Shown here: one piece after another, positions 3,766 to 51,662 of the stretch
How positions within the stretch are numbered: the first letter of the stretch is position 1
Layout of the letters: each line of letters opens with the position of its first letter
Source: a virus
IMG/VR virus record: IMGVR_UViG_3300000313_000054
Direction: 5' to 3' (one strand)
DNA: 64,000 bases
Made by a program: the position numbers and the translations under genes
Notes under the pieces: generated by a model
Databases searched by the model: none
What the model was told of the DNA's origin: nothing
Seen by the model: only the letters and a program-made list of their open reading frames with translations

Positions 3766-4010
3766 AAAATCGTAAGTTAAATTTAAAAAGATTACTGATT
3801 GTCTTGGGTATTCCTTGTGGGATTTGTCTACTTATTTTATTTGGATGGTTGCTGACAAAAATTCCTGGTTTTGAAGTCTCACCGAGTTACCCGATGTGGG
3901 CTAATTATTTTGGTAATGGTATTATAGTTGTAGTATGTCTTGCTGTTATATTTTTATTTTGTATGGGTATTTGGGAGTTTTTTAATTGGTTATTTCCTAA
4001 AGAGAACTGA
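3762..4010 (+). CDS. small polytopic membrane protein; paralog of CDS 33083-33328
   Basis: RKLNLKRLLIVLGI...WLFPK shared with 33083-33328 at protein and DNA level. Confidence 0.65.
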   Translation: MKNRKLNLKRLLIVLGIPCGICLLILFGWLLTKIPGFEVSPSYPMWANYFGNGIIVVVCLAVIFLFCMGIWEFFNWLFPKEN

Positions 4011-4020
4011 GAGAAATAAA

Positions 4021-4961: not shown

Positions 4962-4990
4962 TTGACATTCTCTGTAGTGCGTGCTAACAT
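4962..4990 (+). promoter_or_regulatory. sigma-70 promoter TTGACA-17-TGcTAACAT; ATG at 4997 lies exactly 6 nt after the -10
   Basis: -35 TTGACA at 4962-4967 and extended -10 TAACAT at 4985-4990 read directly. Confidence 0.6.
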
Positions 4991-4996
4991 AAAAAT

Positions 4997-5254
4997 ATGA
5001 GAAAGATATTTAAGTGGTTGACTAAAAGTAATCATACTTGGTATGACAAAGGATATCATAAAGCGTATCTTATTTTAAGTTGGCTCGTTGTAGTCTTTTT
5101 AATTCCGTTATTCACCTCGATTATATTTATTCACTTGGGGAATATTTTTGAAGCAATCTTTAGTTGGTTAATGTTAGCAAGTGTCATATTAATTGCATTC
5201 TTACTTGAGATGGATATTCAAAAATATAAAAAGTCACTATTGATAAGTAAATAA
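4997..5254 (+). CDS. membrane protein; apparently leaderless mRNA
   Basis: 85-aa ORF starting ATGAGAAAG 6 nt after -10 hexamer; no RBS. Confidence 0.55.
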   Translation: MRKIFKWLTKSNHTWYDKGYHKAYLILSWLVVVFLIPLFTSIIFIHLGNIFEAIFSWLMLASVILIAFLLEMDIQKYKKSLLISK

Positions 5255-5584
5255 GTCAGTGTTATAATCAAAATTAACAGACTTGATAAGCCAACTACCT
5301 TAAATGGCAAGCGCAACATATCAAGTATTACAGAAAGATTTTATAGAGATTAGTTTGCCTGAGCTAGTCTCTATAGAGTCGAAATTAAAAAGTTAATAAG
5401 TAGAAGTTACAGTTGGCTGACAAAACTCAGTTTATAGCGGTTAGTGTGCCAATTACCGACACAGACTGAGATGCTTTAGTGCTTGGGTGTACATGAGAAC
5501 AAACTGGTGAAAATGAGCTTCTATTTTTTAAAAAGTGTATAGTCCTTAGCGTTGATGTAATTCGATGTTAAGATGGTATTTAAT

Positions 5585-5657
5585 GCCGATGTAGCTCAGT
5601 GGTAGAGCAAACCATTTGTAATGGTAAGGTCGGTAGTCCGATTCTAACCCATCGGCT
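5585..5657 (+). tRNA. tRNA-Thr (anticodon UGU), 73 nt, no encoded CCA
   Basis: GCCGATG/CATCGGC acceptor, GCTC...GAGC D-arm, anticodon loop TTTGTAA; hand folded, one G-A mismatch in T-stem. Confidence 0.6.
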
Positions 5658-5668
5658 CTTTTAAAAAT

Positions 5669-5790
5669 TGAATATAGAAGTCTTAGGTGGCGGAATAGGT
5701 AGACGCTGTGGACGCTATGCGATAAAGGTGCAGCCATCATTGACAAGCTCTTAATATCCATGCGATTGAACCTAAGTAAGTAATTTATTT
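5669..5790 (+). ncRNA. unresolved tRNA-like segment (5' half resembles tRNA-Leu: TGGCGGAATAGGTAGACGC) of abnormal length
   Basis: strong similarity of the D-arm region to bacterial tRNA-Leu but no canonical anticodon or T arm found by hand; CCTAAG complementary to acceptor lies about 95 nt downstream. Confidence 0.25.
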
Positions 5791-5799
5791 ATTTAGGAA

Positions 5800-6350
5800 T
5801 GACCATGCAAGACACAAACGTAGAGCATCTAAGGTGACAATGGCAATACTGGTTTACGAGGCGAAAGCACTACGAATTTAAAGAAACAAGGATATTGCTC
5901 AAATCCTTAGACTAAGACTTTTATAGATAACCGAAATATTATAATGTCTACGACTTTTTAGCATGACAGAATAATAAATTAGGTTTGCGTCTGAGAGAGT
6001 CGTTCTTACGATTCGTTATAGCTTAATTGCTATACTTAGTCGCCTTTATTTAGTGGTGGTAATGGCCGAAAGTAGTTAAGGCACGATATGTTTAGTCAAT
6101 TAGGCTAAATGAAAAAGGTAAGCGTGATGTGAGTAAAATCGATTGAATCTCACTAGGCCATCCACCCAATTTAAAAGTTTCATGTTCGATTTAATGTTTC
6201 GTCTTTATGGGGTGTATGGATAGACTATCCAGAGTCGAAAAAGGCTACGTGTCTGGACACATTGGAACGTAGTCGTATGCTAGTAAATGGGGTAAAGGCG
6301 TTTGTATTCTATAGCGAAAGCATGAACCGCAAACACCCCATATTTAGAGT
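5800..6350 (+). ncRNA. approximately 550-nt ORF-free, locally GC-enriched segment with long-range complementarity (GGGGTGT at 6207 vs ACACCCC at 6337); unassigned structured RNA candidate
   Basis: no ORF of 60 aa or more on + strand, multiple hairpins, sits between tRNA genes. Confidence 0.3.
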
Positions 6351-6355
6351 TTAAA

Positions 6356-6529
6356 ATGAAAAGACAAAGTAACAAAATAAATAATGTAACCATAGTTTCT
6401 AAAGAGGAAGCTAATAAAATTTGGGATGAGTCGTGGGAAGAATACTTAAAATTAATAAAAGAACAAAAACTTGACGACCCTAAAAGGATACCTACAAGCG
6501 AATTTATGCATAGACATTGTGTGATTTAA
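6356..6529 (+). CDS. hypothetical small protein (57 aa)
   Basis: ATG ORF MKRQSNKINNV... ending 2 nt before tRNA-Ser. Confidence 0.4.
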   Translation: MKRQSNKINNVTIVSKEEANKIWDESWEEYLKLIKEQKLDDPKRIPTSEFMHRHCVI

Positions 6530-6531
6530 GT

Positions 6532-6616
6532 TGAGAGTTGGCAGAGAGGTCTATTGCAACCGTCTTGAAAACGGTGGACGAAAGTCTCAGAGGTTCAAAT
6601 CCTCTACTCTCAGCCA
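6532..6616 (+). tRNA. tRNA-Ser (anticodon UGA), type II with long variable arm, CCA encoded
   Basis: acceptor TGAGAGT/ACTCTCA, anticodon stem ACCGT/ACGGT with loop CTTGAAA, variable arm GAC-GAAA-GTC, T-arm AGAGG-TTCAAAT-CCTCT, ends GCCA. Confidence 0.8.
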
Positions 6617-6620
6617 ATAC

Positions 6621-6719
6621 TGGTGAGTTGGCGAGTGGGTGTAAGCCAGTAGTCTCGAAAACTACCAGACGACCTTAATAAGGCATCGTCCGTGAGTTCG
6701 AATCTCACCTCATCAGCCA
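6621..6719 (+). tRNA. tRNA-Ser (anticodon CGA), unusually long (99 nt) with about 25-nt variable arm, CCA encoded
   Basis: acceptor TGGTGAG/CTCATCA (one G-U), anticodon stem GTAGT/ACTAC with loop CTCGAAA, T-arm GTGAG-TTCGAAT-CTCAC, ends GCCA. Confidence 0.7.
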
Positions 6720-6837
6720 ATAATTTTAAGTCTATGCACCATGTGTGTAAAAGATAACGAAGTCCCTTGATCTAATGTTTAAAATTAAGTAGCCTCTTTT
6801 GCAGAGTCGGCTAGGGGATTGGGACTTCAGATTTTTT

Positions 6838-6872
6838 AACCGTTAGATGTAATTCGTCTAACGGTTTTTTGT
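6838..6872 (+). terminator. rho-independent terminator closing the tRNA island
   Basis: perfect 10-bp stem AACCGTTAGA/TCTAACGGTT followed by TTTTTTGTTG. Confidence 0.85.
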
Positions 6873-6889
6873 TGTCTAAAATTTGGGTA

Positions 6890-6919
6890 TTGACTTATTG
6901 ACACGTAGTGGTATATAAT
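6890..6919 (+). promoter_or_regulatory. sigma-70 promoter TTGACT-18-TGgTATAAT; ATG at 6926 is 6 nt after -10
   Basis: -35 at 6890-6895, -10 at 6914-6919. Confidence 0.65.
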
Positions 6920-6925
6920 TAAAAT

Positions 6926-7105
6926 ATGAGAAGAAAAGGATGTGAAACAAGCATGAATTATATTTTTGTTCCAATGATAAATTATAGGAATAGGTATCTG
7001 ACAAAAGGGTTGGTCTTAATGGAATTATATTGGGTTGGAAAAGAATTTGGGGCTACTCAAACTAAAACAATTGCGATGATGAAAAATTCTGGATGGTGGA
7101 AGTAA
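6926..7105 (+). CDS. hypothetical small protein (59 aa), apparently leaderless (starts ATGAGAAGAAAAGG)
   Basis: ORF MRRKGCETSMNYIFVP...; no RBS; ATG at predicted +1. Confidence 0.45.
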   Translation: MRRKGCETSMNYIFVPMINYRNRYLTKGLVLMELYWVGKEFGATQTKTIAMMKNSGWWK

Positions 7106-7130: not shown

Positions 7131-7340
7131 ATGAATTGGTTAATGAAGTTATTTAAACCTGAAAGTTCACGGCTTGAATGTCTACGTGTTTTAGATGAAA
7201 CAGAAGTAATGGTGAATAAAATTCAAGTAAGTCTACATAATAGTGAAAAACAAAACGAAATACTCTTTGCAAATTTAAAAGGAACAATGCCAGAAGTTCC
7301 AAGTGTTTATATGAAAGCTTTTAAAGATGGGAAGGTGTAA
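7131..7340 (+). CDS. hypothetical protein; full-length paralog of the fragment at 2-121
   Basis: RBS aaaaggaagga; 69 aa. Confidence 0.65.
   Translation: MNWLMKLFKPESSRLECLRVLDETEVMVNKIQVSLHNSEKQNEILFANLKGTMPEVPSVYMKAFKDGKV
7207..7321 (+). repeat. 115-bp direct repeat of window positions 1-115 (one mismatch)
   Basis: direct sequence comparison. Confidence 0.9.
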
Positions 7341-7344
7341 AAAT

Positions 7345-7620
7345 ATGAGAAGAAAACAAGGTCAATTAGTTCCATTAGAAGAAGAAATACTATCAGTAAT
7401 TAAGTCGTTAAATGGTGAGTCGTATGGCTATTTAATTCTTAAAAACTTGTCTAAAAAATGTGATACTTCAACATTATATCGAGCATTAAAAAGACTTGTT
7501 AAGATGGGTAAGTTAGAAAGCCATTTGGAAGATTTAAAACCCTGGCCTCTATTAGATGAAAATTTAAAAGAAGAATGTAGACCTATTAGACGGTTGTATA
7601 AATTAATTGAGAAGGAATAG
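7345..7620 (+). CDS. PadR-like winged-helix transcriptional regulator
   Basis: ESYGYLILKNL...STLYRALKRLVKMGKLES matches the PadR recognition helix and wing pattern; start moved to ATG with RBS aaggtg. Confidence 0.55.
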   Translation: MRRKQGQLVPLEEEILSVIKSLNGESYGYLILKNLSKKCDTSTLYRALKRLVKMGKLESHLEDLKPWPLLDENLKEECRPIRRLYKLIEKE

Positions 7621-7622
7621 AT

Positions 7623-8213
7623 ATGAAAGAGAGCTATGAACTTTATTGGAAGGACTATTATAAAATATTACAAGTACATCCGTTGGCTGAGCCAGAAGTA
7701 ATAAAAGTATCTTATATAAAATTGGCGCAGATGTATCATCCAGATCACAACATCGATTTAAAATCAGAGAATAAAATGGTAGATTTGAATGAGGCTTTTG
7801 GGATTATTGGCAATCCTATTAAAAGAGAATCTTACGATATTCAGTATAACCAACCGCATTTAAGTTGTGAACAAAAAAATAGTTTAAATAATGACGTTGA
7901 AAAACGTAGTAATAATGAAATAAATATCAGAAATAAAATATTATCTATATATGAAGAACAGTTAAATGATTCCAAAAGAAGTGGTGGATGTTTTTGGAAC
8001 AAATATATTAAAGAACAATGGGCTGATAGAGTAAATGAAATTATTGACTGGCTGAATATCCGTAGTAAACCATCACATATGGGGAAATGTTTATTTTGTA
8101 AAAGAGAGACAGTAATATTTAATGCAGATTCTACTTTGGGACAATGTATTGACCCTAATTGCGGGTATGTCATAGCCCCTGAGTTGCGTAGTGTTCATAA
8201 AATCAGGTGGTGA
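7623..8213 (+). CDS. J-domain (DnaJ-like) protein with C-terminal CxxC..CxxC zinc ribbon
   Basis: DYYKILQVHP...IKVSYIKLAQMYHPDHN contains the HPD motif of J domains. Confidence 0.75.
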   Translation: MKESYELYWKDYYKILQVHPLAEPEVIKVSYIKLAQMYHPDHNIDLKSENKMVDLNEAFGIIGNPIKRESYDIQYNQPHLSCEQKNSLNNDVEKRSNNEINIRNKILSIYEEQLNDSKRSGGCFWNKYIKEQWADRVNEIIDWLNIRSKPSHMGKCLFCKRETVIFNADSTLGQCIDPNCGYVIAPELRSVHKIRW

Positions 8214-8248
8214 ATGTCGAGTTATAGAATTAAATTAGGAGTATTAAA

Positions 8249-8593
8249 ATGCCAGACCCCAAAAATTACGTAGATAAAAATTTTACATTTGTTAAATCTC
8301 ACGTGAGGAGGAAAAGAATATTTTCCAATAAACCATCAAGTGACAAGTGGGTTTATATTTTTGTATTACTAATAGTTGCAAGTATCATACTATACTTCTT
8401 TTGGGAATTTATACTTGTCGGAATAGCGGTCATTGGTTTATTGTTACTCATAGTTAAAAGAAAAAGAATTAAACTATGGTATATGAAAATAGTAAATAGA
8501 AAGTTTGATGAAAAAACTAAATTTAATGATGACTATGAATTAAATAAATCAAAGTATGATTATTATAAATCAAAGAATGAAAGAAAGGAGTAA
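8249..8593 (+). CDS. membrane protein
   Basis: 114 aa with two TM helices. Confidence 0.55.
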   Translation: MPDPKNYVDKNFTFVKSHVRRKRIFSNKPSSDKWVYIFVLLIVASIILYFFWEFILVGIAVIGLLLLIVKRKRIKLWYMKIVNRKFDEKTKFNDDYELNKSKYDYYKSKNERKE

Positions 8594-8598
8594 TAATA

Positions 8599-8949
8599 AT
8601 GGAAGAAAATAAAGAGAACAATCAAGAAGAAGATTCTTTAGAATGTCAGTATTGTAGACTCGAAGGACAGTTAGTTAAAATAAAATATGGAATAATCTCT
8701 CAGATTTTAGAAGCTGGTTTGAATTTTAAAAACTATTACGAAAGTTGTCTTGAAAATGGAGTCTTATCTGAAGATAAAAAGACAGAATTACAAACTAGAT
8801 ACAACACTACTTTAAACAATTATTTCGATGTTGTGAACTTAGTTTGGAACGAAGATATTGACGAAGATTGTGACGATTGTAGCCTCAATCCCAGTACTCT
8901 TGATAGCGAATTAAAAGATATTTTGGATAAGAAGAAGGATGGGAAATAA
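8599..8949 (+). CDS. hypothetical acidic protein with CQYC motif
   Basis: 116 aa ORF. Confidence 0.55.
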   Translation: MEENKENNQEEDSLECQYCRLEGQLVKIKYGIISQILEAGLNFKNYYESCLENGVLSEDKKTELQTRYNTTLNNYFDVVNLVWNEDIDEDCDDCSLNPSTLDSELKDILDKKKDGK

Positions 8950-8951
8950 AT

Positions 8952-9251
8952 ATGCAATTTGAAGTAAGTGAAGAAGAAGTGGTGAGGATTGTACGTAGAA
9001 GAGAAGGATACTCTCTTCTAAAATCTTTTTGGAAGAGTCCACTATCTAAAGGGTTGATAATCGTAGGTTTTTCAACACTCATTGTAACTTTTATATTAAA
9101 TACAGTTGATGCCTCAAAGTGGTGTTCAGAAATTATAAGTGGAATATCTTTGGTAACGTGGTTGATTTTAATTAAAAGAATCTATGGTAGATGTCGTTCT
9201 GATGCTAAGACACTACTCTTTGCTTTAAAAGATAAAATACAAGACCCATAA
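8952..9251 (+). CDS. membrane protein
   Basis: 99 aa ORF, hydrophobic core. Confidence 0.5.
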   Translation: MQFEVSEEEVVRIVRRREGYSLLKSFWKSPLSKGLIIVGFSTLIVTFILNTVDASKWCSEIISGISLVTWLILIKRIYGRCRSDAKTLLFALKDKIQDP

Positions 9252-9331
9252 AAATATTAATAAAGTATATTCTGGATGTAAAATAGTTTTTGGATATTTT
9301 GGATAAGAAAAAAGAGAAATGAAAAAGAGAA

Positions 9332-9553
9332 ATGAAAAAGTTATTTAAGTCAATTAAGAATATTGGTATGAACTTAATGTACTTGTTGTTATTAATTACC
9401 ACTTGTTACCAGATATTTACAACCGAAAATTGGTGGTCAATATGGCAATATAAATTAGTTTTTATCATACTTGTTATAGCCTCTCCATTATATCTGTATG
9501 AGTTTATTAAGTGGGTGAAAGGCAAACTGGATAAGAAGAAAGAGGGGAAATAA
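9332..9553 (+). CDS. small membrane protein; C-terminal EFIKWVKGKLDKKKEGK motif recurs at 33334-33384
   Basis: 73 aa; preceded by a 13-nt tandem duplication gaaaaagagaaat x2 at 9308-9333. Confidence 0.5.
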   Translation: MKKLFKSIKNIGMNLMYLLLLITTCYQIFTTENWWSIWQYKLVFIILVIASPLYLYEFIKWVKGKLDKKKEGK

Positions 9554-10263
9554 TGTATCAGAAAGGGTATCACCATACAGAAGAAGAAAAAGAGAAGATT
9601 AGACAAGGTAAGTTAGGCGCAAATAATCCTAATTTTGGTAAGAAATTATCACCGGAAACTTGTGCTAAGATGAGTGCATCACGAACTGGTAAAAAACATC
9701 CTAAGACCGAAACAATGATTGCAAAACAAAAAGAGTCATTAAAAAAGTTTTATAATTCAGAAGATGGTTCAGTTTTTAAAGAACATCTAAGTGAAGTGAA
9801 TAAGGGAACATCTTGGCATAAAGGATTTAGACATGAATTTTCAGACGAAACTAAAAAGAAAATGGGAGTAATACAAAAGAAAAAGTGGCAAGACCCTATT
9901 GAAAGAGACAAACGTGTTGACGCAATTATGAGTGCTGGTAAGCAAGTTCCTAATTATAGAGAATTACAGTTATTATCATATTTGAATGAGGCGAAGTCTG
10001 GTTGGGAGTTTATTGGTAATGGTAAATTACATGGTGAAAAATTCAAGGTTGGTGGTAAATGTCCAGATTTTATATTAGAGGGTACTAAATTATTATGTGA
10101 ACATTATGGTGCTGGATATCATACTGAAGATCAAGTACAACCTAGAATAGAATTTTTTAAACAACTTGGATATGCAACCTTGATTATTTGGCAGAAAGAA
10201 TTAAAATATAAAGAAAAAGTAATACAACGGATTAAGGAATTTGTGGCAGAAAATTATTTTTAA
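9553..10263 (+). CDS. homing-endonuclease-like protein: NUMOD3-type repeats plus C-terminal Vsr/EDxHD-like nuclease domain
   Basis: repeated GKKLSPETCAKMSASRTGK / GFRHEFSDETKKKMGV motifs; C-terminus CPDFILEG...CEHYGAGYHT. Confidence 0.55.
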   Translation: MYQKGYHHTEEEKEKIRQGKLGANNPNFGKKLSPETCAKMSASRTGKKHPKTETMIAKQKESLKKFYNSEDGSVFKEHLSEVNKGTSWHKGFRHEFSDETKKKMGVIQKKKWQDPIERDKRVDAIMSAGKQVPNYRELQLLSYLNEAKSGWEFIGNGKLHGEKFKVGGKCPDFILEGTKLLCEHYGAGYHTEDQVQPRIEFFKQLGYATLIIWQKELKYKEKVIQRIKEFVAENYF

Positions 10264-10272
10264 AATTGCCTA

Positions 10273-10301
10273 TTGACAAGCATAAAAATGTGTGCTACAA
10301 T
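10273..10301 (+). promoter_or_regulatory. sigma-70 promoter TTGACA-17-TGcTACAAT driving the structured RNA locus
   Basis: -35 at 10273-10278, -10 at 10296-10301; upstream aaaattgcctattgac shared with the promoter at 57517. Confidence 0.7.
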
Positions 10302-10481
10302 CTAATTAATAGCTTGAAAGAGCGATTTTAGAGGTCGAGTCTCAAATAAATATTTAGCAATCCGAGTAGCAATATTCGAGGTTGCTTTTTGTTTACGAGA
10401 GATTTTAATAGCTCGAAAGGGCGTGAGTCGGAAGTCAAATTTTTAAATGCAGATGATCTTGGGTTGAAGATACAGCCCCTT

Positions 10482-10641
10482 TATACAGTAATGTATATCG
10501 AATAACCCTGAATATCGGTAAAAGTCTGAGATGATAATGCCGAGGGACAGCCCGAAAGGGAAGCCCGTAGAGACTACCAAGGGGCGACTTAGAAAATAAG
10601 CTGATGGCATAGCCCGAACTGCAATGAAAAACAAATTGCAG
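10482..10641 (+). repeat. structured module copy R1
   Basis: TATACA-gtaa-TGTATA hairpin, aaccctgaatatcgg, CCC-GAAA-GGG, CTTA-gaaaa-TAAG, CTGCAAT-gaaaaacaa-ATTGCAG. Confidence 0.6.
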
Positions 10642-10654
10642 AGTAACAAAAATA

Positions 10655-10966
10655 TTGCTTATCTTCGCAGCCATTTTCGTGTACGTTGGTGTTAACCTGG
10701 AACCTGGTTTGAACACTACCGTCAGCACTATCACTACTCCTACCTATTCCAGTGGTGTTGCTGGTCTTAACGGAGTAATCATGATTGTTTTCGCAGCTAT
10801 GATTATCTTCGGCGTAAAATTACAATGCGCCACTACGAAGCGATTCGTAGTGCAAACCCTGAATATCGGTGGAAGCCTGAAACGGTCACGCCGAGGGACA
10901 GCCCTGAAAAGGGAAGCCCGTAACGACTACCAAGGGGCAACTCTAGTGATAGAGCTGGTGGCATAG
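10655..10966 (+). CDS. small hydrophobic peptide ORF embedded between R1 and R2 (TTG start; alternative ATG at 10787 has RBS GGAG)
   Basis: NTTVSTITTPTYSSGVAGLNG matches the C-terminus of CDS 131-457 (8 of the first 12 residues identical) with mostly synonymous DNA differences; TM segment(s) then K/R-rich tail. Confidence 0.4.
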   Translation: MLIFAAIFVYVGVNLEPGLNTTVSTITTPTYSSGVAGLNGVIMIVFAAMIIFGVKLQCATTKRFVVQTLNIGGSLKRSRRGTALKREARNDYQGATLVIELVA

Positions 10967-10995
10967 TCTGGTCTATAACGAATAACAAGTTATAG
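10831..10995 (+). repeat. structured module copy R2
   Basis: CACTACGAA-gcga-TTCGTAGTG hairpin, aaccctgaatatcgg, CCCT-GAAA-AGGG, CTCTA-gtga-TAGAG, CTATAAC-gaataacaa-GTTATAG. Confidence 0.6.
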
Positions 10996-11407
10996 TTAAC
11001 ACAACGAGTCAAACAAATGAGTGCTGCTGCCTAATAGCAGAAATGGGGAGTGGGTCAAAAGCTCACTCCCCTACTCATACAAAAAATTTCAAAAATAAAA
11101 ATGAGGTAATATGAAAAAGGGAAAGAAACTGAAACTACCTAGCTATGGGATGAAAGACCCGTTAAAAATGAAAAACAAGAAAGATTTTTACAATGACAAG
11201 TCAGGTAGTTTAAAAAAGTTAATGAAATAACAGGAGCGTTTAAAATGAAAACAACTAAGGTCAAAAAATGGGGAATGATGTCTTGAAAGAACAAACCAAT
11301 TAAATCAGAAATGGCACGATTTAAGAAAGATGCTGATATCCATAATGTAAAGAAAAATCCCTTTAAATAAGTCCTAAAGTATCCCTTTTAAATTAGAAAT
11401 TTCTAAG

Positions 11408-14566: not shown

Positions 14567-16396
14567 ATGGTTACATGGATTGTCTTGGGTATTATCGGTT
14601 TAGCATTTCTAATTTTTATCTTACCTGGTTTCTTTATCATTGGTGCTAGAGATGTAGGTGTCTTAACTCGTAAGAACTTTGGCACAAGATTACCTGAAGG
14701 TCACATCATTGCTTGTAATGGGGAAATTGGTATTCAAGCAGATGTTTTAAGACCTGGTTTTTATTGGAGATTCCCTATTTTGTGGGGAATTAAAAAAGAC
14801 AAGATTATTGTAGTCAATCCTGGTGAAGTAGGTTTGGTAAAATCTGTTGACGGTGTTACACTTTTAGCCAATAGAGTACTTGGTGATGAAGTCGAATGTG
14901 ATTCGTTCCAAGATGCTAAGAAATTTCTAACAACTGGTGGTTATCGTGGTGCTCAAATTGGTTTTCTAAGACCTGGTACTTATCGAATTAATACTTCAGC
15001 ATTTGATGTAGCAATTCAAAAAGCTACAATCGTTCCTGAGAATAGTATTGGTATCGTAATGGCGAATGACGGTATTCCGTTGTCAACTAGTTACGTAATT
15101 GCACCTAGACCGAAGGATTCAGATAATCAAGATGTCGCAGATTCATCATTATTCCAGAATGGTCAGTTGTTCATTAAGAGCAAGGGCTATCGTGGTGCTC
15201 AACTTGATACTTTGCAACCTGGTACTTATTATATCAATACGTTACTCTTTAAAGTGAACATTCAACCCATTGCAGAAGTACCGCCTGGTTATGTAGCAGT
15301 CATTCGTTCTAACGTAGGTATAGAACTTGAAAGGTCAGTTGAGAAACCCATTGATTCAGAGAGTTCAAATCTAAAAGATAAAGTCCATGCGGACGTTGAA
15401 AGATTACTCACAACTGATAAGTACACTAGAGGTATTTGGCGTGAACCGATTGCTCCTGGTAAATATAACTTGAATCCGCTTGCCTTTACACCCTATCTAG
15501 TTCCTACTTCAGCAGTTACTATTGATTGGGCAGCAGAGGGCAGGATTGGAACTGAAGTTAAAGGTGTTACTAATGAAGGCGTACTATACAAGTTTAATCC
15601 CTTGAAAGTTACATCTAAAGATGGTTTTCAACTTGAAGTAAACATTAGAATTGTCATTCGTATTACGCAAGAAAATGCATCGTTTATCATTGCTAGATTT
15701 GGTTCAGTAGATAACTTGATTGACCAGATTGTTCATCCCTTGATTGATGCGTCTTTCAGAAATAAAGCTGGTGAAAAGAAAGCCATTGATTTTTTCCAGA
15801 GTCGTACTGACTTACAGGTTGAAGCGTTGAATCATGCAAAATCTGTTTTTGAAGAGTACAATGTGTTAGCTCAGAATTTACTAGTCGCTTACATTGATAT
15901 TCCTCAGAGTTTGTTGGATACTCAGACTCAAAAAGAAATCGCATTGCAACAACAAGCTCAGTTTGTCGAACAAGCTAAGGCACAAGAACAGAATATTGCA
16001 GTACAAGAAAAAGCTGCAAGAGCTTTGAAGCAAAAAGATGTCATCAATGCTAAATTGGAAATTGATATCAAGACAGATTTGGCTAGTGCTAGAATGAAAG
16101 AAGCTGAAGGTGAATCTGTTTACTTACAGAAAACTAATGCTGCAACTGGTAAAGGTTTGGCTGAAGGTTATCAAGCTCAAAAGGATGCTTTGGGTGAGGA
16201 AGGAACTACTCTAGTCAACATTATTAAAGCGTTAGCTGATAAAGGATTGAAGTTTGTTCCCGAAGTTCAAGTCGGTAATAGTGAGGGTGGATTAGGTGCT
16301 CTCATCGGTTCTTTAACCGCAAAGTTTGGTAAAGAATTAGCTCAAAAACCTGAAGTTAAAACTATCGAAGTAGATTCTAAATCTAAAGAAGACTAA
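14567..16396 (+). CDS. SPFH/flotillin-like membrane protein (YqiK/FloT-like)
   Basis: N-terminal TM, SPFH-like core, duplicated GYRGAQ..L(R/Q)PGTYxIN module, Ala/Gln/Glu-rich C-terminal repeats. Confidence 0.65.
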   Translation: MVTWIVLGIIGLAFLIFILPGFFIIGARDVGVLTRKNFGTRLPEGHIIACNGEIGIQADVLRPGFYWRFPILWGIKKDKIIVVNPGEVGLVKSVDGVTLLANRVLGDEVECDSFQDAKKFLTTGGYRGAQIGFLRPGTYRINTSAFDVAIQKATIVPENSIGIVMANDGIPLSTSYVIAPRPKDSDNQDVADSSLFQNGQLFIKSKGYRGAQLDTLQPGTYYINTLLFKVNIQPIAEVPPGYVAVIRSNVGIELERSVEKPIDSESSNLKDKVHADVERLLTTDKYTRGIWREPIAPGKYNLNPLAFTPYLVPTSAVTIDWAAEGRIGTEVKGVTNEGVLYKFNPLKVTSKDGFQLEVNIRIVIRITQENASFIIARFGSVDNLIDQIVHPLIDASFRNKAGEKKAIDFFQSRTDLQVEALNHAKSVFEEYNVLAQNLLVAYIDIPQSLLDTQTQKEIALQQQAQFVEQAKAQEQNIAVQEKAARALKQKDVINAKLEIDIKTDLASARMKEAEGESVYLQKTNAATGKGLAEGYQAQKDALGEEGTTLVNIIKALADKGLKFVPEVQVGNSEGGLGALIGSLTAKFGKELAQKPEVKTIEVDSKSKED

Positions 16397-38379: not shown

Positions 38380-38409
38380 TTGACTTTAATATGTATGTAT
38401 TGGTATAAT
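38380..38409 (+). promoter_or_regulatory. sigma-70 promoter TTGACT-18-TGgTATAAT; ATG at 38416 is 6 nt after -10
   Basis: -35 at 38380-38385, -10 at 38404-38409. Confidence 0.65.
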
Positions 38410-38415
38410 GAGAAT

Positions 38416-39972
38416 ATGAGAAGAAAAATAATTATCTCAGTTTGCTTGATTTCATATGTACTATTTATTACTTTACCAGCTGTACTCCATCGATATATTT
38501 ATCCCAATTCAGGTGATGACTCTGCCACAATCCTTAATATGTTCCGTTTTGACAATTTAATGCAGTTAAATCATTATGGATATGCAATAATTGGATACCC
38601 TCTTAATTGGTTAGCATCTGTGACATCTATTCCACTGGCCTCTTTATATTTATGGTTCAGTTATATTGCATTGGTTGGAGTAGGACTTAGTTTATTCTTC
38701 ATTTTAACTAAGTTAGTTAACTATAAAGCTGGTTTACTTGCGTTAGTTATTCCGACTTTGCTATCGAGAGGTTTTATAACCCTATTTGACTACGGTATGA
38801 TCTTTAATATTATTAGTTCTGGCATTCTATTGCCGTTCTTGATTTATTTTTCAATTAAATATGTAATCACAAATCGAAAAGTCTACCTAATCTCATCTAT
38901 ATCACTCACATTTATATACAGTATCTTTCATACGATGGGTATTTATCTAGCTCCAATATGTTTAGTCATGTTAATGTTCTATATAATTTATAAAAGAAAA
39001 GAAGTTAATAATTCAATTATCCTATTTCTCGATGTGGTGATTATAACTAATTTGGTAGGAACAATATTAAGAATTTATCCATCAAGATTTTCTATTACTA
39101 ATACTGATATTCCAATTAGCCAGAGTTTAACAAACTTTTACGTGTACGTTTTGGTCTTGAGCCTTGTGATACTTTTATTCCTATATATTTTGCGTAAGAA
39201 TAGAATATTTAAGTGGCTATCATATAGTCTCATAGTCTTAATGGGTTGTACTTTAATCTGTGAATATCTTGTAATGAAACCAGAGGCGAGTTGGATAGTC
39301 AATGGTGTTACATCTGGTTCTGGTAAGATTATGCCGATTGATTGGATGTTAGAAATTATAAATCCAGTAACATTAATTGCGTTGTTTTTATCTATACTTT
39401 TAATATGGGGTTTAATTAAGGATTTAAAAACAGAAACTAAGTTATTAATTTTTGTTTATGTATTATTATCTTTAATGTTAGCAACCTTCGCTTTATTAGG
39501 TTTGACTCCTACACCAGATAGAATGACATTTGATTTAGCGAATATGATAGGTGTATTAACAGCTATTTGCGTTGGTTTAATGTGGAATTATAAGAAGTTA
39601 CATATAATAGTGGTAGCTATAGTGGTGATAAGTTTTTATTCAACATCTTTTGGATGGTGTAGTTATCGAAACGCTGTAAAGCCAGTCGATGTTGAGACTA
39701 TGGAATATTTAGATACATTGAACTATAGTTCTTATACTTGTTCTCCGACTATAAATCCAGACATCTACGATCAGTTTACTAAAGCGAAGTATAATAAAAA
39801 TTCTGATGTGCTTATAGTCCGTAATTTAGCTATGACCCCACAGAGCGACCCTACTAGTTTAGCTTATAATCCTCATGGTCAAACATCAACCGAAGGGTTT
39901 AAACTTGATAAAGAATTTAGTGAAACAATGCGTGGTATAGAGATTAAAATAGATATTTATATTAAGGAATAA
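38416..39972 (+). CDS. large polytopic membrane protein (about 12 or more TM); Wzy/GT-C-like polymerase or glycosyltransferase candidate; leaderless start
   Basis: the ORF track extends the start upstream of the promoter; in-frame ATGAGAAGAAAA at the predicted +1. Confidence 0.55.
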   Translation: MRRKIIISVCLISYVLFITLPAVLHRYIYPNSGDDSATILNMFRFDNLMQLNHYGYAIIGYPLNWLASVTSIPLASLYLWFSYIALVGVGLSLFFILTKLVNYKAGLLALVIPTLLSRGFITLFDYGMIFNIISSGILLPFLIYFSIKYVITNRKVYLISSISLTFIYSIFHTMGIYLAPICLVMLMFYIIYKRKEVNNSIILFLDVVIITNLVGTILRIYPSRFSITNTDIPISQSLTNFYVYVLVLSLVILLFLYILRKNRIFKWLSYSLIVLMGCTLICEYLVMKPEASWIVNGVTSGSGKIMPIDWMLEIINPVTLIALFLSILLIWGLIKDLKTETKLLIFVYVLLSLMLATFALLGLTPTPDRMTFDLANMIGVLTAICVGLMWNYKKLHIIVVAIVVISFYSTSFGWCSYRNAVKPVDVETMEYLDTLNYSSYTCSPTINPDIYDQFTKAKYNKNSDVLIVRNLAMTPQSDPTSLAYNPHGQTSTEGFKLDKEFSETMRGIEIKIDIYIKE

Positions 39973-39974
39973 AA

Positions 39975-40730
39975 ATGAAGGTAGTTATATTTTGTGGTGG
40001 TCGTGGTTTTAGACTTCAGGAGGAAACTGAGTATCGTCCTAAACCTTTGGTATCAATTGGTGGCATACCTATCTTAGTCCATATAATGAATATCTATTCC
40101 CGTTATGGAATTAATGAATTTATTCTATGTTTGGGTTATAAAGGTCAGATGATAAAAGACTACTTTATTAATTATGACACAATGACAAACGATGTCACAG
40201 TTGTATTAGGGGATGAACATAAAATTATAGTGGAAAGGAAACAAGAAAAACTTAATTCAGTAGTTACAATGGTGGATACTGGATTAGAAACAATGACAAG
40301 TGAACGCCTAACCAGAATTAAAAAATATATTGGAAATGAAACATTTATGCTAACTTATGGCGATGGTGTTTCAGATATAAATATTCAAGACTTACTTCTA
40401 TTTCACAAAGCACATGGAAAGATTGCAACAGTTACAGCAGTCCACCCGACTTCTAAGTATGGCGTAATTAAATCAGAACATGGTGAAGTCACAAAGTTCT
40501 CAGAAAAACCAGTACAAAGTGACAGAATTAGTGCTGGTTTTTTTGTATTTGAGCCGGAAGTTTTTAATTATCTAGATGACGGAATGTTAGAACAAACCCC
40601 ATTACATAAGTTGTCAGAAAATAAACAATTAAGAGCTTTTGAGCATAATGGATGTTTTCATTCTATGGATACTTATAGTGATTTTAATGAATTAAATAAA
40701 ATGTGGAATGAGGGGAAAGCTAAATGGTAA
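39975..40730 (+). CDS. rfbF: glucose-1-phosphate cytidylyltransferase
   Basis: [34 protein letters not shown]... is the RfbF/DdhA signature. Confidence 0.8.
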
Positions 40731-41698
40731 ATTGGCAGGACAGACCTGTTTTAGTTACAGGTGCTACAGGATTATTAGGTGGTTGGCTTACTAAAAGGTT
40801 AATAGATTTAAATGCGGGTGTTGTTTGTTTAGTAAGAGATTGGAACCCGAATAGTTTATTTGAAATGAACAGATTAGAGGAATCAGTATGTGTAGTTAAT
40901 GGCGATATTACAGACCAGAGATTATTAGAAAGAATATTAGGTGAATATGAAATTGAGATGGTATTCCATTTAGCTGCCCAAACTATTGTAGGGATTGCAA
41001 ATCGTAATCCAGCATCAACATTTGAATCCAATATTAAAGGTACGTGGTCATTATTAGAAGCGTGTAGAAGAAGTCCTAAAGTTCAGTCAATTGTAGTCGC
41101 ATCAACGGATAAAAGTTATCGTGAGGATTGTAAGTTACCTTATAAAGAAGATATGGCATTAGGTGGTAGTTATCCTTACGATGTTTCAAAATCTTGTGCC
41201 GATTTAATTGCACAATCCTACGGTAAAACTTATCAACTTCCCGTGGCTATTACACGATGTGGAAACTTATACGGTGGTGGTGATTTGAATTGGAATAGAG
41301 TGATACCTGGAACAATCAGATCAGTTATTCGTGGTGAGCAACCAGTAATTAGATCGAATGGAAAGTTTATCAGAGATTATGTTTACGTTCAAGATGCTGT
41401 AAACGCATATATAAAATTATCAGAGTGTGTCTCAGAAAACAATGTTTTAAATGGTCAGGCGTTTAATTTTTCCAATGATACCCCAATGAACGTATTGCAA
41501 ATAGTGGATAGTGTATTAAATTTAATGCAAAGTAAACTGAAACTTATTGTTCAAAATAAAGCGAGTAACGAGATATTAGAACAAAGTTTATCATCAGAAA
41601 AAGCATTTAATCTATTGGGTTGGAAGTCTGAGTATACATTAGAACAAGGTTTGGATGAAACTATTAAGTGGTATAAGGGGTATTTCAGTGAAAGATAG
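40724..41698 (+). CDS. rfbG: CDP-glucose 4,6-dehydratase (SDR)
   Basis: [19 protein letters not shown] Rossmann motif, YDVSK catalytic pair. Confidence 0.7.
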
Positions 41699-42896
41699 AA
41701 TAAGAGTTCCTTATGCTGGTAGAGTCTACGATGATAACGAAATTAATAATTTAATTGATGCTTCTAAAAAGTTCTGGTTAACAAGTGGAGAATATTCTGG
41801 AAAATTTAAGAAAGGATTATCAGAATTTACAGGTGTTAAATACGTTGTCTTAACTAATTCAGGTTCGTCAGCTAATCTCTTAGCAATTTCAAGTCTTAAA
41901 GCAATTGGTAAATTAAAAGATGGTGATGAAGTAATCACTACAGCCTGTGGTTTCCCAACTACCCTAAATCCTATTATTCAGAATAATTTAGTTCCAGTAT
42001 TTGTAGACGTAGACGATACGTTAAATATCGATGTTACTAAACTTGAAGCGGCATTATCGCCTAAAGTTAAAGCACTAATGATACCTCATACTCTAGGTAA
42101 CCCCTTTGATATTTCAAGAGTAATGTCTTTCGCAATAAGACATGAAATCGAGATTATAGCAGATTGTTGTGATGCGTTGGGGTCACAGTATCGAAATATG
42201 TCAGTAGAGCAATGTGCAACTATTTCTACGCACTCGTTCTACCCTGCTCATGGAATTACGTGCGGTCAGGGTGGAGCAGTTTTAACTAATTCTAAAGAGC
42301 TATATCGTGTAATTAATTCTATGAATACTTGGGGGCGTGACTGCACCTGTAATTCAGGACAAGATAATAAATGTGGTAAAAGATTTGAAGGACAATATGG
42401 TGATTTACCATTTGGTTACGACCATAAATATGTTTATTCATACATAGGTTATAATTTTGAAATGACTGATTTGCAGTCGGCAATTGGTGTCGCTCAATTA
42501 GAAAAGTTGCCCGATTTCATAAGACTTAGAAAGAGTAATTATAAGTATTTGTATAACAATCTTAAAAAGTTTGGCGTTGTATTTAAGTTTCCCACAGTCA
42601 ATCAAGGAGCAGACCCTTGTTGGTTCTCATTTCCAATAACAATGAGAAATACAACAGCATTAAGAAGGAATGATGTTGTTAAATATTTAGAAGAAAACAG
42701 TATTCAGACACGCTTGTTATTTGGTGGAAATTTATTAAGACAACCTGCTTATAAAAATATTCAACATAGGGTAGTTGGAGAATTAACAAATACAGATTAC
42801 ATTATGAATAATTCGTTTTTCATTGGGGTCTATCCTGGTTTGGATAAAAAGAAATTAGACTACATGATTGAGGCGATTGAGGACTTGGTGGGATGA
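41655..42896 (+). CDS. rfbH: DegT/DnrJ family PMP enzyme with C-x-C-x7-C Fe-S motif: CDP-4-keto-6-deoxyglucose 3-dehydrase (E1)-like
   Basis: aminotransferase fold motifs plus [11 protein letters not shown], the [2Fe-2S] motif characteristic of E1; likely start is the GTG at 41688. Confidence 0.6.
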
Positions 42897-43831
42897 ACTT
42901 ACTATCTAAAGATTTAAAATATATGGCTGATAATGTGGATTGGGTTGAATTAAACAATTCACGTATTTTAATAACAGGTGCATCAGGGTTTGTTGGAAGT
43001 TGGATGGTAGACAGTATTCTCTATGCTAAAGATAAATTTAAGTTAGATATTGAAGTTTGTGTTTTAACCAGAGACTTTAATAAATTATTGGATATGTATG
43101 GTAATAAGGTTACTATTTATAGTGGGGATGTAAGAGATGTTTCATTAGGTGGGTTTGATTATATTATCCATTTAGCTTCACATGAAGGTCATAGATTAAT
43201 GGTTGATAATCCGATAGAAATGTACGATATCATAGCGAATGGTGCTTGGAATATGTTAAGACTTGCATGCAAATGTAGTTGTAAAAAAATCCTTTATATG
43301 AGTTCTGGAGTAGTAACTAAAGAAGAAATTAATCCTTATTCACAGGGTAAAAAGATGGGTGAATATCTTTGTAATCTCTATCACGAACAATACGGGTTGG
43401 ATATAAAAATAGCCAGAGGATTTGATTTCATTGGTGGTAGAATACCATTAGACAAACACTTTGCAATAGGCAATTTTATAAACGATATATTAAATGATAG
43501 GCCAGTAGACATAAAGAGTGATGGACTTGCCGTAAGGTCGTATCTTTATATGGCAGATGTTGTAGTTTGGTTGTGGACTATATTATTAAAAGGGCAATCA
43601 TGTGTTCCATATAACGTTGGTTCTCATAAGGCATATACAATAGGTAGTGTGGCGAGAATGGTAGCGGATTTTGGTAGGTATAATAAAGGTATAAATTGTC
43701 ACTCATTAAGTAGCGGAGTAAACGATAGTTATTATCCTGAAATTAATAACGTAAAAGACTTGGGGTTGATGCAAATGGTAGGATTAAACGATGCTATTAA
43801 AATGACATTAGATTGGTATAAAAACTTTTAA
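42893..43831 (+). CDS. NAD-dependent sugar epimerase/reductase (SDR)
   Basis: ITGASGFVGSW, YSQGK. Confidence 0.6.
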   Translation: MNLLSKDLKYMADNVDWVELNNSRILITGASGFVGSWMVDSILYAKDKFKLDIEVCVLTRDFNKLLDMYGNKVTIYSGDVRDVSLGGFDYIIHLASHEGHRLMVDNPIEMYDIIANGAWNMLRLACKCSCKKILYMSSGVVTKEEINPYSQGKKMGEYLCNLYHEQYGLDIKIARGFDFIGGRIPLDKHFAIGNFINDILNDRPVDIKSDGLAVRSYLYMADVVVWLWTILLKGQSCVPYNVGSHKAYTIGSVARMVADFGRYNKGINCHSLSSGVNDSYYPEINNVKDLGLMQMVGLNDAIKMTLDWYKNF

Positions 43832-43885
43832 TAAGTGTTGGTTAATGGTATAATTAAGTATGTAGTAAGGATTGGATTTATATAA

Positions 43886-45379
43886 ATGAGACTAAATGAA
43901 GTAATGCCATTATTTATACTCGAAATGGCTAATTCCCACTCAGGTAATTTGGAACATGGTTTAAAAATAATTAACGAAATGCGTAAAGCAACTCAAAACT
44001 TTAATTTCAAATTAGCTATAAAGTTTCAGTACAGGGACATAGACTCATTCATCCATCCAGATTTTAAAGGTGATTATTCGTTTAAATATATAAAAAGGTT
44101 TTCAGAAACACGACTAAAAGAATCTGATTTATTGACTTTAAAAACTGAAGCTCAAAGGTTAGGTTTCATCACGATGTGTACTCCATTTGATGAAAACTCA
44201 GTGGACTTAGTTGAAAAGCATAATTACGATATCATAAAGATCGCCTCATGTTCATTTACCGACTGGCCTCTATTAGAAAGAATTATAAAGACAGATAAAC
44301 CAATAATTGCTTCAACAGCAGGTATTGATATGAAAGATATTGAGAGTTTTGTTTCCTTTATGGAACATCGGAATAAAGACTTTGCATTGTTACATTGTGT
44401 AGCGCAGTATCCAACACCTGATAAATATTTATCGTTGGGTAGAATTAAAATTCTCAAAGACAAATTCCCTGAAATACCGATTGGTTATTCAACACACGAA
44501 AATCCAGATAACTATGATTCTATTAAAGTTGCTATCGGTCAAGGTGCTACAATATTTGAGAAACATGTAGCTATACATACCGATGAGATAATGCCTAATG
44601 CGTATTCTGCGATACCAGAACAAGTAGGAAAGTGGTTACAGTCTGCTTTACACGCTTACGAAATGTTGGAAGTTTCAGAACCAAAAGAGAACGAATTAAA
44701 AGAGTTGAAAGCCTTACAACGTGGTGCGTATTGTAAGCGTAAAATTAAAGTAGGTGAACCTGTAAAATTAGAAGATGTATTCTTTGCTATACCAACAGTT
44801 GAAGGGCAATATACAGCCAACGATTTTTCAAAATATGTAGAATTTAAGACTAAAATTGATATTCCAGAAAAATACGCATTACTTAAAGATGATATCCAAA
44901 AAATAGATAAAAGAAATGGAGTATCCGTTATCGTTCATAAGGTTAATGACTTTATTAAACAATCTGGTTTGTCTATCCCATCTAAGGTCGATATAGAAGT
45001 TTCACATCACTACGGAATGGAATTTTTTGATTTGTATGGTATGACTATTTTTACAATTATTAATGAGGAGTACTGTAAGAAATTATTAGTTTTATTGCCT
45101 AATCAACAACATCCTACTCAGTACCATAAAAAGAAAACAGAAACATTCCATATATTAGCAGGTGAAGTATTTATTACTTTAAACGGATGTAAACAGAAAT
45201 ACGTAAAAGATGATATTATCACAGTTAATATTGGTGTAAAACATTTTATGGAAACATTAACTGGTGTAGTGATTGAGGAAATATCAAGTACTCATTACAA
45301 AGATGACTCTTTTTATACAGATGAAAAGATAAACTCTAATCCAAATAGAAAAACAAAATTAACATATTGGTTGGAATAA
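43886..45379 (+). CDS. NeuB/PseI-like sugar-acid synthase (PEP condensing) with SAF domain and an extra C-terminal cupin-like domain
   Basis: N-terminal FILEMANSHSGNLEHGLKII pattern, SAF-like RKIKVGEPVKLEDVF, C-terminal 150-aa extension. Confidence 0.5.
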   Translation: MRLNEVMPLFILEMANSHSGNLEHGLKIINEMRKATQNFNFKLAIKFQYRDIDSFIHPDFKGDYSFKYIKRFSETRLKESDLLTLKTEAQRLGFITMCTPFDENSVDLVEKHNYDIIKIASCSFTDWPLLERIIKTDKPIIASTAGIDMKDIESFVSFMEHRNKDFALLHCVAQYPTPDKYLSLGRIKILKDKFPEIPIGYSTHENPDNYDSIKVAIGQGATIFEKHVAIHTDEIMPNAYSAIPEQVGKWLQSALHAYEMLEVSEPKENELKELKALQRGAYCKRKIKVGEPVKLEDVFFAIPTVEGQYTANDFSKYVEFKTKIDIPEKYALLKDDIQKIDKRNGVSVIVHKVNDFIKQSGLSIPSKVDIEVSHHYGMEFFDLYGMTIFTIINEEYCKKLLVLLPNQQHPTQYHKKKTETFHILAGEVFITLNGCKQKYVKDDIITVNIGVKHFMETLTGVVIEEISSTHYKDDSFYTDEKINSNPNRKTKLTYWLE

Positions 45380-45381
45380 AA

Positions 45382-45681
45382 ATGATATATGGTATTGATA
45401 TGGATGGAGTAATTTGTAAAACTAATGGGACTGATTATCAACATAGTGTACCAGTTAGTGACGTAATCGACAAAATAAATTCATTATATCACAAAGGCGA
45501 TAAGATAATTATTTATACAGCAAGAGGAACCAAGTCTGGATTAGATTTAAGACAACTAACGCAGAGCCAATTAAAAGCGTGGGACGTTAAGTACCATGAA
45601 TTGATATTCGGGAAGCCAGTCTTTGATATTTATGTTGGTGATGAAGCAATCAATATAATAAATTGGATGGAGAGTAAATGA
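45382..45681 (+). CDS. small HAD-superfamily phosphatase
   Basis: MIYGIDMDGVI begins with the DxDGV motif I. Confidence 0.5.
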   Translation: MIYGIDMDGVICKTNGTDYQHSVPVSDVIDKINSLYHKGDKIIIYTARGTKSGLDLRQLTQSQLKAWDVKYHELIFGKPVFDIYVGDEAINIINWMESK

Positions 45682-47745: not shown

Positions 47746-47746
47746 A

Positions 47747-51638: not shown

Positions 51639-51662
51639 AGAGATTTATATAAAGGAGCAAAA

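Follow-up and report, generated by a model that had tools for sequence, protein, structure and literature searches.

In the transfer RNA (tRNA) region of phage T4, the stable RNA species 1 and 2 are co-transcribed with the tRNAs, have tRNA-like ends, and are cut out by host tRNA-processing enzymes. Two further RNAs, GOLLD and ROOL, have to our knowledge no known function. Both adjoin tRNA islands in phages and prophages, and the linkers of GOLLD sometimes contain tRNAs (PMC5737381; PMC12286853). We analyzed the tRNA island at positions 5255-6880 of IMG/VR virus record IMGVR_UViG_3300000313_000054, within a stretch of 64,000 nucleotides (nt) called the window here. The window is a virus-like contig, AT-rich with a guanine plus cytosine (GC) content of 33%, whose genes are essentially all on the plus strand and most of whose proteins lack a recognizable family. 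Like the T4 region, the island would combine tRNA genes and extra non-tRNA RNAs in one phage operon, with processing that we infer. It differs from T4 in that the extra RNAs span about 1.1 kilobases (kb) and comprise at least six modules, one of them a tRNA-Leu scaffold with three large loop insertions, and in that the island has no sequence similarity to any GenBank phage beyond its canonical tRNAs and the tRNA-Leu D-arm region. Judged from sequence, the island belongs to no curated RNA family and may be classed with tRNA-derived viral RNA. We give about an even chance to the reading that the island produces co-transcribed tRNA-derived or tRNA-shaped stable RNAs, in which the tRNA-Leu scaffold (module M4) has been reused as a mimic, a decoy, or punctuation rather than left to decay freely.

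A sigma-70-type promoter lies at 5240-5268 on the plus strand (TTGATA, 17 nt, and TATAAT with a TG extension; 11 of 12 matches), with a predicted start of the island transcript near 5275. The other end is marked by an intrinsic terminator at 6838-6876, also on the plus strand, with a 12-base-pair (bp) stem at 6838-6866, a 5-nt loop, and then a TTTTTGTTG tail; this factor-independent terminator had already been recognized in a first-pass annotation made from the letters alone. On these two signals, the island is predicted to form a single transcription unit of bacterial type, about 1.6 kb long, between the promoter at 5240 and the terminator at 6866. Across the window there are ten promoter calls of equal quality on the plus strand and two on the minus, most of them between genes. 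The type and the mostly intergenic placement of these promoters point to a bacterial host.

The island had been described as containing almost no protein coding. That description suits 5255-6355, which at 1101 nt is the longest gap in the window without an open reading frame (ORF) and has about 31 stops in each of the three plus frames. All three kinds of stop codon occur in every plus frame, and hidden coding under a stop-reassigned code was rejected on that ground. The description fails for 6356-6529, where gene finders call a plus-strand ORF of 57 amino acids (aa) with a weak ribosome-binding site, between module M7 and the first tRNA-Ser. The earlier proposal of structured RNA, now placed between promoter and terminator, agrees with the folding of the island, whose 140-nt windows have a mean z of -1.75 compared with -0.10 elsewhere (Mann-Whitney p = 2.5e-5; background of 200 fixed 140-nt windows elsewhere within the first 15 kb). 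In all six modules compared, the plus strand is more stable than the minus strand by 6-11 kcal/mol, with many G-U pairs.

The anatomy of M4 (5673-5925; this and all modules below are on the plus strand) is established: it is a tRNA-Leu(UAA) scaffold with three loop insertions. The module is closed by a 14-bp helix of 5673-5686 with 5912-5925, 13 of whose 14 pairs are Watson-Crick, the acceptor stem being lengthened by leader-trailer pairing; the scaffold proper runs from 5681 to 5918. Its 5' part (5681-5712) consists of the acceptor strand TCTTAGG, TG, the D arm GCG-GAATAGGTAGA-CGC, a T, and the 5' strand of the anticodon stem, GTGGA. Insert 1 (5713-5749) follows, 37 nt that fold as a hairpin in the anticodon loop at positions 31/32 or 32/33, the boundary being ambiguous by 1 nt. 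The anticodon part (5750-5761) then supplies the loop CTTAATA, with anticodon UAA, and the 3' strand TCCAT. The enlarged variable region (5762-5829), which holds a 12-bp hairpin (5771-5797) and a small second hairpin, has 68 nt compared with 16 in the tRNA-Leu(UAA) of Enterococcus phage iF6. The T stem begins at 5830-5835 with TAAGG plus T54, and insert 3 (5836-5898), 63 nt forming an irregular hairpin with a GAAA cap (GCGAAAGC), separates positions 54 and 55 of the T loop. The 3' part of the scaffold (5899-5918) comprises TCAAAT, the T-stem strand CCTTA, two extra nucleotides (GA), and the acceptor strand CTAAGAC (5912-5918). Joined across insert 3, the T loop is the canonical TTCAAAT on a 5-bp stem. 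Pairing is complete in the D stem (3 of 3), the anticodon stem (5 of 5), and the T stem (5 of 5, extendable to 7), and amounts to 6 or 7 of 7 pairs in the acceptor stem, depending on register.

The first-pass annotation had noticed the tRNA-Leu-like start of this segment and had suggested an interrupted gene of tRNA origin. Both points stand, with three interruptions rather than one and with a scaffold that continues to 5918 instead of ending near 5790. The sequence CCTAAG about 95 nt downstream, which had been offered as the acceptor half, does not have that role; it lies in the variable region, in the 5' strand of the 12-bp hairpin, without a T arm before it. The actual 3' half of the T arm and the acceptor strand are those at 5899-5918.

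Matches to tRNA-Leu genes of Enterococcus and other Bacillota phages cover 5685-5713 in a blastn search of 50,697 phage records, and M4 shares the anticodon stem GTGGA/TCCAT identically with the iF6 tRNA-Leu(UAA). As encoded, M4 gives no ARAGORN call (default, intron mode, and thresholds down to 80% of the default) and, even when the search was narrowed to 271 nt, no RF00005 match at an expectation value (E) up to 10, in keeping with the earlier remark that the segment resists completion into a canonical cloverleaf. When both inserts were deleted and the variable region was shortened, default ARAGORN called tRNA-Leu(UAA) in 312 of 319 constructs, all made of native sequence only, with the variable region cut to 3-24 nt. 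Keeping either insert 1 or insert 3 reduced the calls to 0 of 319. The four canonical stems together with 7-nt anticodon and T loops are found in M4 only after such removal and shortening in silico.

The 3' half of the scaffold was also examined by a rule built on canonical features. It asked for a T plus TCRAAT loop on a T stem of 5 bp, followed within 0-2 nt by an acceptor complement in which Watson-Crick pairs make up 6 or more of 7. The sole match in 5762-6360 is 5830/5899, and any match at all arose in 16 of 20,000 shuffles; a looser form of this T-arm-plus-acceptor rule gave 5.6%. The 14-bp closing helix was seen in none of 3000 shuffles. The free minimum fold of 5668-5930 (-64.4 kcal/mol, z = -2.7) contains the closing helix, the extended T stem, and the variable hairpin. 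A fold constrained to the D and anticodon stems of the cloverleaf is only 3.5 kcal/mol less stable (-60.9 kcal/mol) and retains the closing stem, the T extension, and the variable hairpin.

In the 64 kb, ARAGORN and Rfam both find three tRNA genes and no more, the same three that had been read in the first pass: tRNA-Thr(UGU) at 5585-5658 (54.4 bits, CCA not encoded, T loop UCCGAUU), tRNA-Ser(UGA) at 6532-6616, and tRNA-Ser(CGA) at 6621-6719, all on the plus strand and both serine genes with an encoded CCA. The unusual length of tRNA-Ser(CGA), 99 nt with a long extra arm, was also read correctly and corresponds to a 24-nt variable-arm insertion relative to the tRNA model. No further segment of the island is resolved into an ordinary tRNA by these programs, and the first-pass observation thus stands in modified form. 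The three tRNAs fit the preferred A-ending codons of the element. UUA makes up 57% of its Leu codons and is second among all codons, and ACA and UCA are likewise preferred. Besides M4, the window has no tRNA-Leu gene by ARAGORN or Rfam, and since UUA is so frequent, an active tRNA-Leu(UAA) would benefit the element more than any other tRNA it could carry.

This codon demand, together with a complete scaffold that default ARAGORN calls as tRNA-Leu(UAA) once the inserts are gone and with companion tRNAs that read preferred codons, would be explained if the 37- and 63-nt inserts were removed after transcription by an undescribed bacterial or viral route, perhaps with a nuclease and a ligase encoded by the element. 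If M4 is spliced, an unknown bacterial route of tRNA splicing would serve the element's second most used codon. We regard this as decidedly unlikely. The discriminator base is not A, and we know of no bacterial pathway able to excise such inserts. A Pfam scan of the 22 larger ORFs found no RNA ligase or splicing nuclease domain among them.

The tRNA-Leu(UAA) gene of cyanobacteria and plastids is the classic host of a group I intron. Group I introns also occur in Patescibacteria, in tRNA-Asn as well as in tRNA-Asp (PMC13011429). M4 resembles such genes as a bacterial-type gene missed by standard tools, interrupted in the anticodon loop, and shares with the classic case the isoacceptor Leu(UAA). 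In contrast to their introns of 200 nt or more, its inserts have 37 and 63 nt and no catalytic core, the first lies at 31/32 or 32/33, and an extra insert occupies the T loop. The group I rule of a U before the intron and a G at its end is broken by both: insert 1 has A or C before it and U or C as its last base, and insert 3 follows U yet ends in C. No group I or group II intron model matched, Intron_gpI being absent at E up to 10 in the whole island and in small slices, and introns of either group were rejected because the inserts are far too short and splice-site features are lacking. The first-pass suggestion of an intron-like RNA in 5800-6350 also falls, since no intron, tmRNA (transfer-messenger RNA), or ribozyme model matches there.

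Archaeal tRNAs can contain multiple introns at non-canonical positions (PMC3241643). M4 is similar in having several short insertions in one gene, also outside position 37/38, and different in having bacterial promoters and tRNA features and no bulge-helix-bulge. A custom scan of 5685-5925 for that motif (3-nt bulge, 4-bp helix, 3-nt bulge) found none at either pair of M4 junctions and 3-5 away from them, at or below the shuffle level of 5.95 +/- 2.9.

Disruption of the anticodon loop and of the T-loop/D-loop elbow should leave M4 unable to decode in its transcribed form. Acceptor and T-arm architectures of tRNA origin have non-decoding roles in tmRNA and the Y-RNA-like YrlA. Plant mitochondrial t-elements mark RNA ends by way of RNase P and RNase Z (PMC1920247). 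The reuse proposed for M4 would place it beside these RNAs in its tRNA-derived acceptor and T arm. They differ in that their T loop is intact and that of M4 interrupted, and M4 matches none of the models. ARAGORN in tmRNA mode (-m) gave nothing at normal thresholds and noise alone at 70%, and Rfam gave no tmRNA match.

Upstream of tRNA-Thr(UGU) are three further modules. M1 (5337-5380) is a hairpin of 20 bp, five of them G-U, with a loop of 4 nt (z = -5.6 for 5270-5400); its opposite strand has z = -1.8 and is weaker by 11 kcal/mol. M2 (5398-5526) is a multi-branch module with an 11-bp closing stem followed by a T run (z = -1.1), and its 5' end (TAGAAGT..AGTTGGCTGA) is similar to the starts of M4 and tRNA-Ser. 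M3 (5545-5572) is an 11-bp hairpin with a loop, GATGTAATTCG, identical to that of the island terminator; a good T run is absent.

Downstream of M4, the irregular hairpin M5a (5929-5985) and the Y-shaped three-way junction M5b (5987-6043), with the stem GCG.CUGAG/CUUAG.CGC and two hairpins, jointly have z = -3.5 (5925-6052). M6 (6053-6167; z = -2.5) is a module closed by GGTGG..ATGGCC/GGCCATCCACC. At its 3' end is a T-arm-like hairpin with the stem GTGAG/CTCAC, as in tRNA-Ser(CGA), followed by TAGGCCA-T-CCA, and the loop of this hairpin is enlarged by 8 nt at position 54/55, as in M4; these features suggest that M6 descends from a tRNA. M7 (6206-6342; z = -3.3) is a four-way junction of cloverleaf topology on the 10-bp stem TATGGGGTGT/ACACCCCATA; it holds a second GCGAAAGC hairpin tip, and its opposite strand is weaker by 10 kcal/mol. 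The pairing of GGGGTGT with ACACCCC noticed in the first pass is confirmed at its base, where it extends to 13-nt arms (6206-6218 and 6330-6342) that are 92% complementary. M8 (6759-6828; z = -1.8), between tRNA-Ser(CGA) and the terminator, has an 8-bp stem, GAAGTCCC/GGGACTTC, followed by a T run. M4, M6, and M7 share an architecture in which the closing stem is stacked on a 3' hairpin.

The canonical tRNA-Thr(UGU) itself has, despite its 54 bits, a non-canonical T loop, with C for the usual U55, and a bulged T stem. Taken together with the insertions of M4 and M6 at T-loop position 54/55, this makes the T loops of the island generally unusual.

It had been proposed that 5800-6350 is a single segment enriched in GC. 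The enrichment exists and is modest (0.376 for 5800-6355, compared with a window mean of 0.333 and a standard deviation of 0.033), but the single segment dissolves: 5800-5925, about 125 nt, belongs to M4, and 5929-6342 divides into one hairpin plus three modules, each closed separately. A single large ornate RNA of the GOLLD or ROOL type, running over 5673-6342 (about 670 nt) with a covalently embedded tRNA-like domain, would account for the long GC-raised stretch without ORFs, the multi-stem junctions, and the GNRA-type hairpin tips. The setting is also alike, since the region shares a predicted transcription unit with three tRNAs on a virus-like contig, although that is a matter of context and does not define the families GOLLD (RF01998) and ROOL (RF03087). 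Neither model matches the island at its gathering score or at E up to 10, and no other large-RNA model does so at E up to 10 with relaxed filters. Every module has a long closing stem of its own, which sets the island apart from these RNAs, and 5790-6355 (566 nt) folded as one has z = -1.2. That the 566-nt whole does not beat its shuffles argues for separate modules and not one large fold. There are no homologues to reveal long-range pairs, and we consider a single large RNA unlikely.

The other Rfam families, ribozymes included, gave far-sub-threshold noise alone beyond the tRNAs in 5200-6950 at E up to 10. Three candidates were judged by eye and rejected for lack of fit: hammerhead-like cores in M5b or near the AGAGTCGAAA repeats, an 11-nt tetraloop receptor, and a tmRNA-like 5' end in M7. 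The AGAGTCGAAA repeat is present as reported in the first pass, at 5375 and 6231 rather than 5378 and 6228; it is no more than chance would give, a repeated 10-mer being about the chance level in 1.7 kb, and the island has about 20 similar repeat families.

The closing stems could be read at the level of DNA, since inverted repeats of 8-14 bp bound each module and might be the termini of miniature mobile elements or protein-binding sites. These repeats take in the tRNA acceptor strands, and many of their pairs are G-U, which do not match in DNA or on the opposite strand. Target-site duplications are absent, no copy of a module occurs elsewhere in the window, and an origin of this kind is highly improbable.

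A more serious alternative to the reuse of M4 is that it is a tRNA-Leu pseudogene killed by insertions and that the other modules are older decayed tRNAs or passive junk. In agreement with a pseudogene, M4 is derived from tRNA-Leu, is interrupted in its anticodon and T loops, is called by no detector as encoded, and should yield no functional tRNA in that form. Its acceptor is imperfect and its discriminator is not the A of tRNA-Leu. The anticodon and T loops are classic crossover sites of integrases, and the inserts could be scars of recombination or integration, but no direct repeats, such as integration would leave, flank them. Random decay should also break stems, yet all stems of M4 pair, neither its four stems nor its two loop motifs are broken, and all three lesions are loop insertions that form hairpins. 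Intact stems and self-folding insertions argue against simple decay. The other modules can be viewed in the same two ways. M6 retains just CCA and a T arm resembling the one in tRNA-Ser(CGA), M1 has at its 5' end a weak likeness to the 3' half of that tRNA (z = 4.6 among 66 pairs), and with no homologues there is no sign of constraint; against this, the non-tRNA parts fold above the genomic background and better on the transcribed strand. The element carries further long non-coding stretches, but 1.1 kb of junk in a strongly promoted operon would be unusual for an element so densely packed. We consider the decay of M4 and its neighbors possible, though on balance doubtful.

Internal paralogy among the modules is weak and convincing for the two tRNA-Ser genes alone. 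The first 55 nt or so of the transcript (5270-5324) weakly resemble 6657-6715, from the anticodon loop to the 3' end of tRNA-Ser(CGA) (AAAAYTAMCAGA..CTTRATAAGSCA); this is the local alignment scored above at z = 4.6 among 66 module pairs, and it is possibly due to chance. If real, it would mean that the island has a partial tRNA-Ser copy on its left edge and the intact gene on its right.

If the island does produce a set of stable tRNA-like RNAs, host tRNA-processing enzymes (RNase P, RNase Z, or exonucleases) would cut the primary transcript at the tRNAs and the tRNA-shaped modules, and RNase III might cut the 20-bp M1 hairpin. Such cutting would free several stable tRNA-like RNAs and the short messenger RNA (mRNA) of the 57-aa ORF. 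For the tRNAs and the 57-aa ORF, the modules might serve as punctuation of processing; alternatively, they might be mimics of tRNA or decoys for a host factor that binds tRNA-Leu-like shapes. The possible roles would then include tRNA-Leu mimicry, decoys for host defenses that target tRNA, and punctuation of processing. The usual annotation of a phage tRNA island is tRNAs plus "spacer"; here, the spacer exceeds the tRNAs in size. If expressed and stable, these RNAs would form a new class of viral RNA derived from tRNA, intermediate between ordinary phage tRNAs and GOLLD or ROOL. Genes like M4 are missed wholly by tRNA finders, and similar cases may hide in other viral "non-coding" islands.

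Several results weigh against this preferred reading. The M4 acceptor has 6 of 7 pairs in the canonical register, or else two extra nucleotides follow the T stem, and M4 lacks the discriminator A that a tRNA-Leu should have. Folding is no better than in shuffles for M2, for parts of M4, and for 5790-6355 as a whole. The evidence of tRNA ancestry is weak for M6, and tests of it were negative for M2, M5, and M7. A single-deletion ARAGORN scan of 84,111 constructs, in which the positive control worked, found no hidden tRNA in M1-M3, M5-M7, or M8. No homologue of the island was found in GenBank phages, IMG/VR, JGI metagenomes, or GTDB genomes, and the copies in other assemblies (SRR404151 and JGI 3300001213) are 100% identical and offer no variation. 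The lack of a homologue leaves no covariation and no sign of purifying selection, and is the main weakness of any functional claim.

The blastn search of the 50,697 phage records returned the canonical tRNAs and the 29-nt tRNA-Leu D-arm region only. Exact-pattern scans of IMG/VR with the tRNA-Thr T arm, the M4 5' end, the M4 anticodon arm with its insert, and the M7 tip gave none or chance matches. A pattern scan of JGI metagenomes, in a collection without the window's own contig, gave none, and one of GTDB gave a single chance match, inside a Lachnospiraceae coding region. The proteins flanking the island, one DnaJ-like (196 aa) and one with NUMOD3 (236 aa), have no match in IMG/VR and only themselves among 5.8 billion proteins.

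The sole well-conserved neighbor is the 609-aa Band_7/SPFH protein encoded at 14567-16396, which is host-like and leads to cellular (Chloroflexota-like) contigs or to a phage-like contig (L006). It has 57-78% identity to more than 100 metagenomic proteins, many on large cellular contigs and some labelled Dehalococcoidia or Chloroflexi. Its sequence relationships suggest an auxiliary gene acquired from a host, and it may give a clue to what the host is, but the 33% GC and the tRNA-Leu D-arm match to Bacillota phages point away from that clue. L006, the one other phage-like contig with the Band_7 gene, is otherwise unrelated, with two genes in common with the window and no tRNAs. Just upstream of its Band_7 gene, at 7314-9686, are 2.3 kb almost without ORFs between divergent gene blocks; this stretch has similar GGGGTTGACA-type promoters and neither tRNAs nor likeness to the island.

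Strong -10 boxes at 4962-4997 and 6890-6926, on either side of the island, stop roughly 7 nt short of the start codon ATG of the ORF that follows (4997 and 6926). Leaderless mRNAs may therefore serve in the translation of some of the element's early genes; others have clear GGAGG-type ribosome-binding sites.

A second stretch without ORFs occupies 10264-11110, just after the NUMOD3 ORF, with a GC content of 0.44-0.46 and a TTGACA-17-TACAAT promoter at its start. It contains two copies of a motif of about 110 nt, at about 10505-10625 and 10855-10975, which flank or overlap a 103-aa hydrophobic ORF. The conserved blocks of the motif are AACCCTGAATATCGGT, GCCGAGGGACAGCCC, GGGAAGCCCGTA, and GACTACCAAGGGGC. 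A third copy was found on the minus strand of an unrelated 87-kb JGI contig, Ga0209431_10000039 (L018), at 3880-4020. The consensus fold of the three sequences has 30 pairs, five with compensatory changes, and the motif had no Rfam match and no copy in IMG/VR. We propose it as a candidate new small structured RNA motif on the strength of this modelled fold.

Two other regions of the window stand out. A sugar-modification cluster at about 38380-53521, unusual cargo for a contig of about 67 kb, encodes a DegT-type aminotransferase, a NeuB-like synthase with a cupin, a radical SAM/SPASM protein, a thiamine-pyrophosphate enzyme, and a protein with a weak GT87 glycosyltransferase match. The highest GC of the window (0.45-0.47) occurs at 24800-25700, inside a 2586-aa ORF without a Pfam match, and may represent a mosaic or acquired segment.

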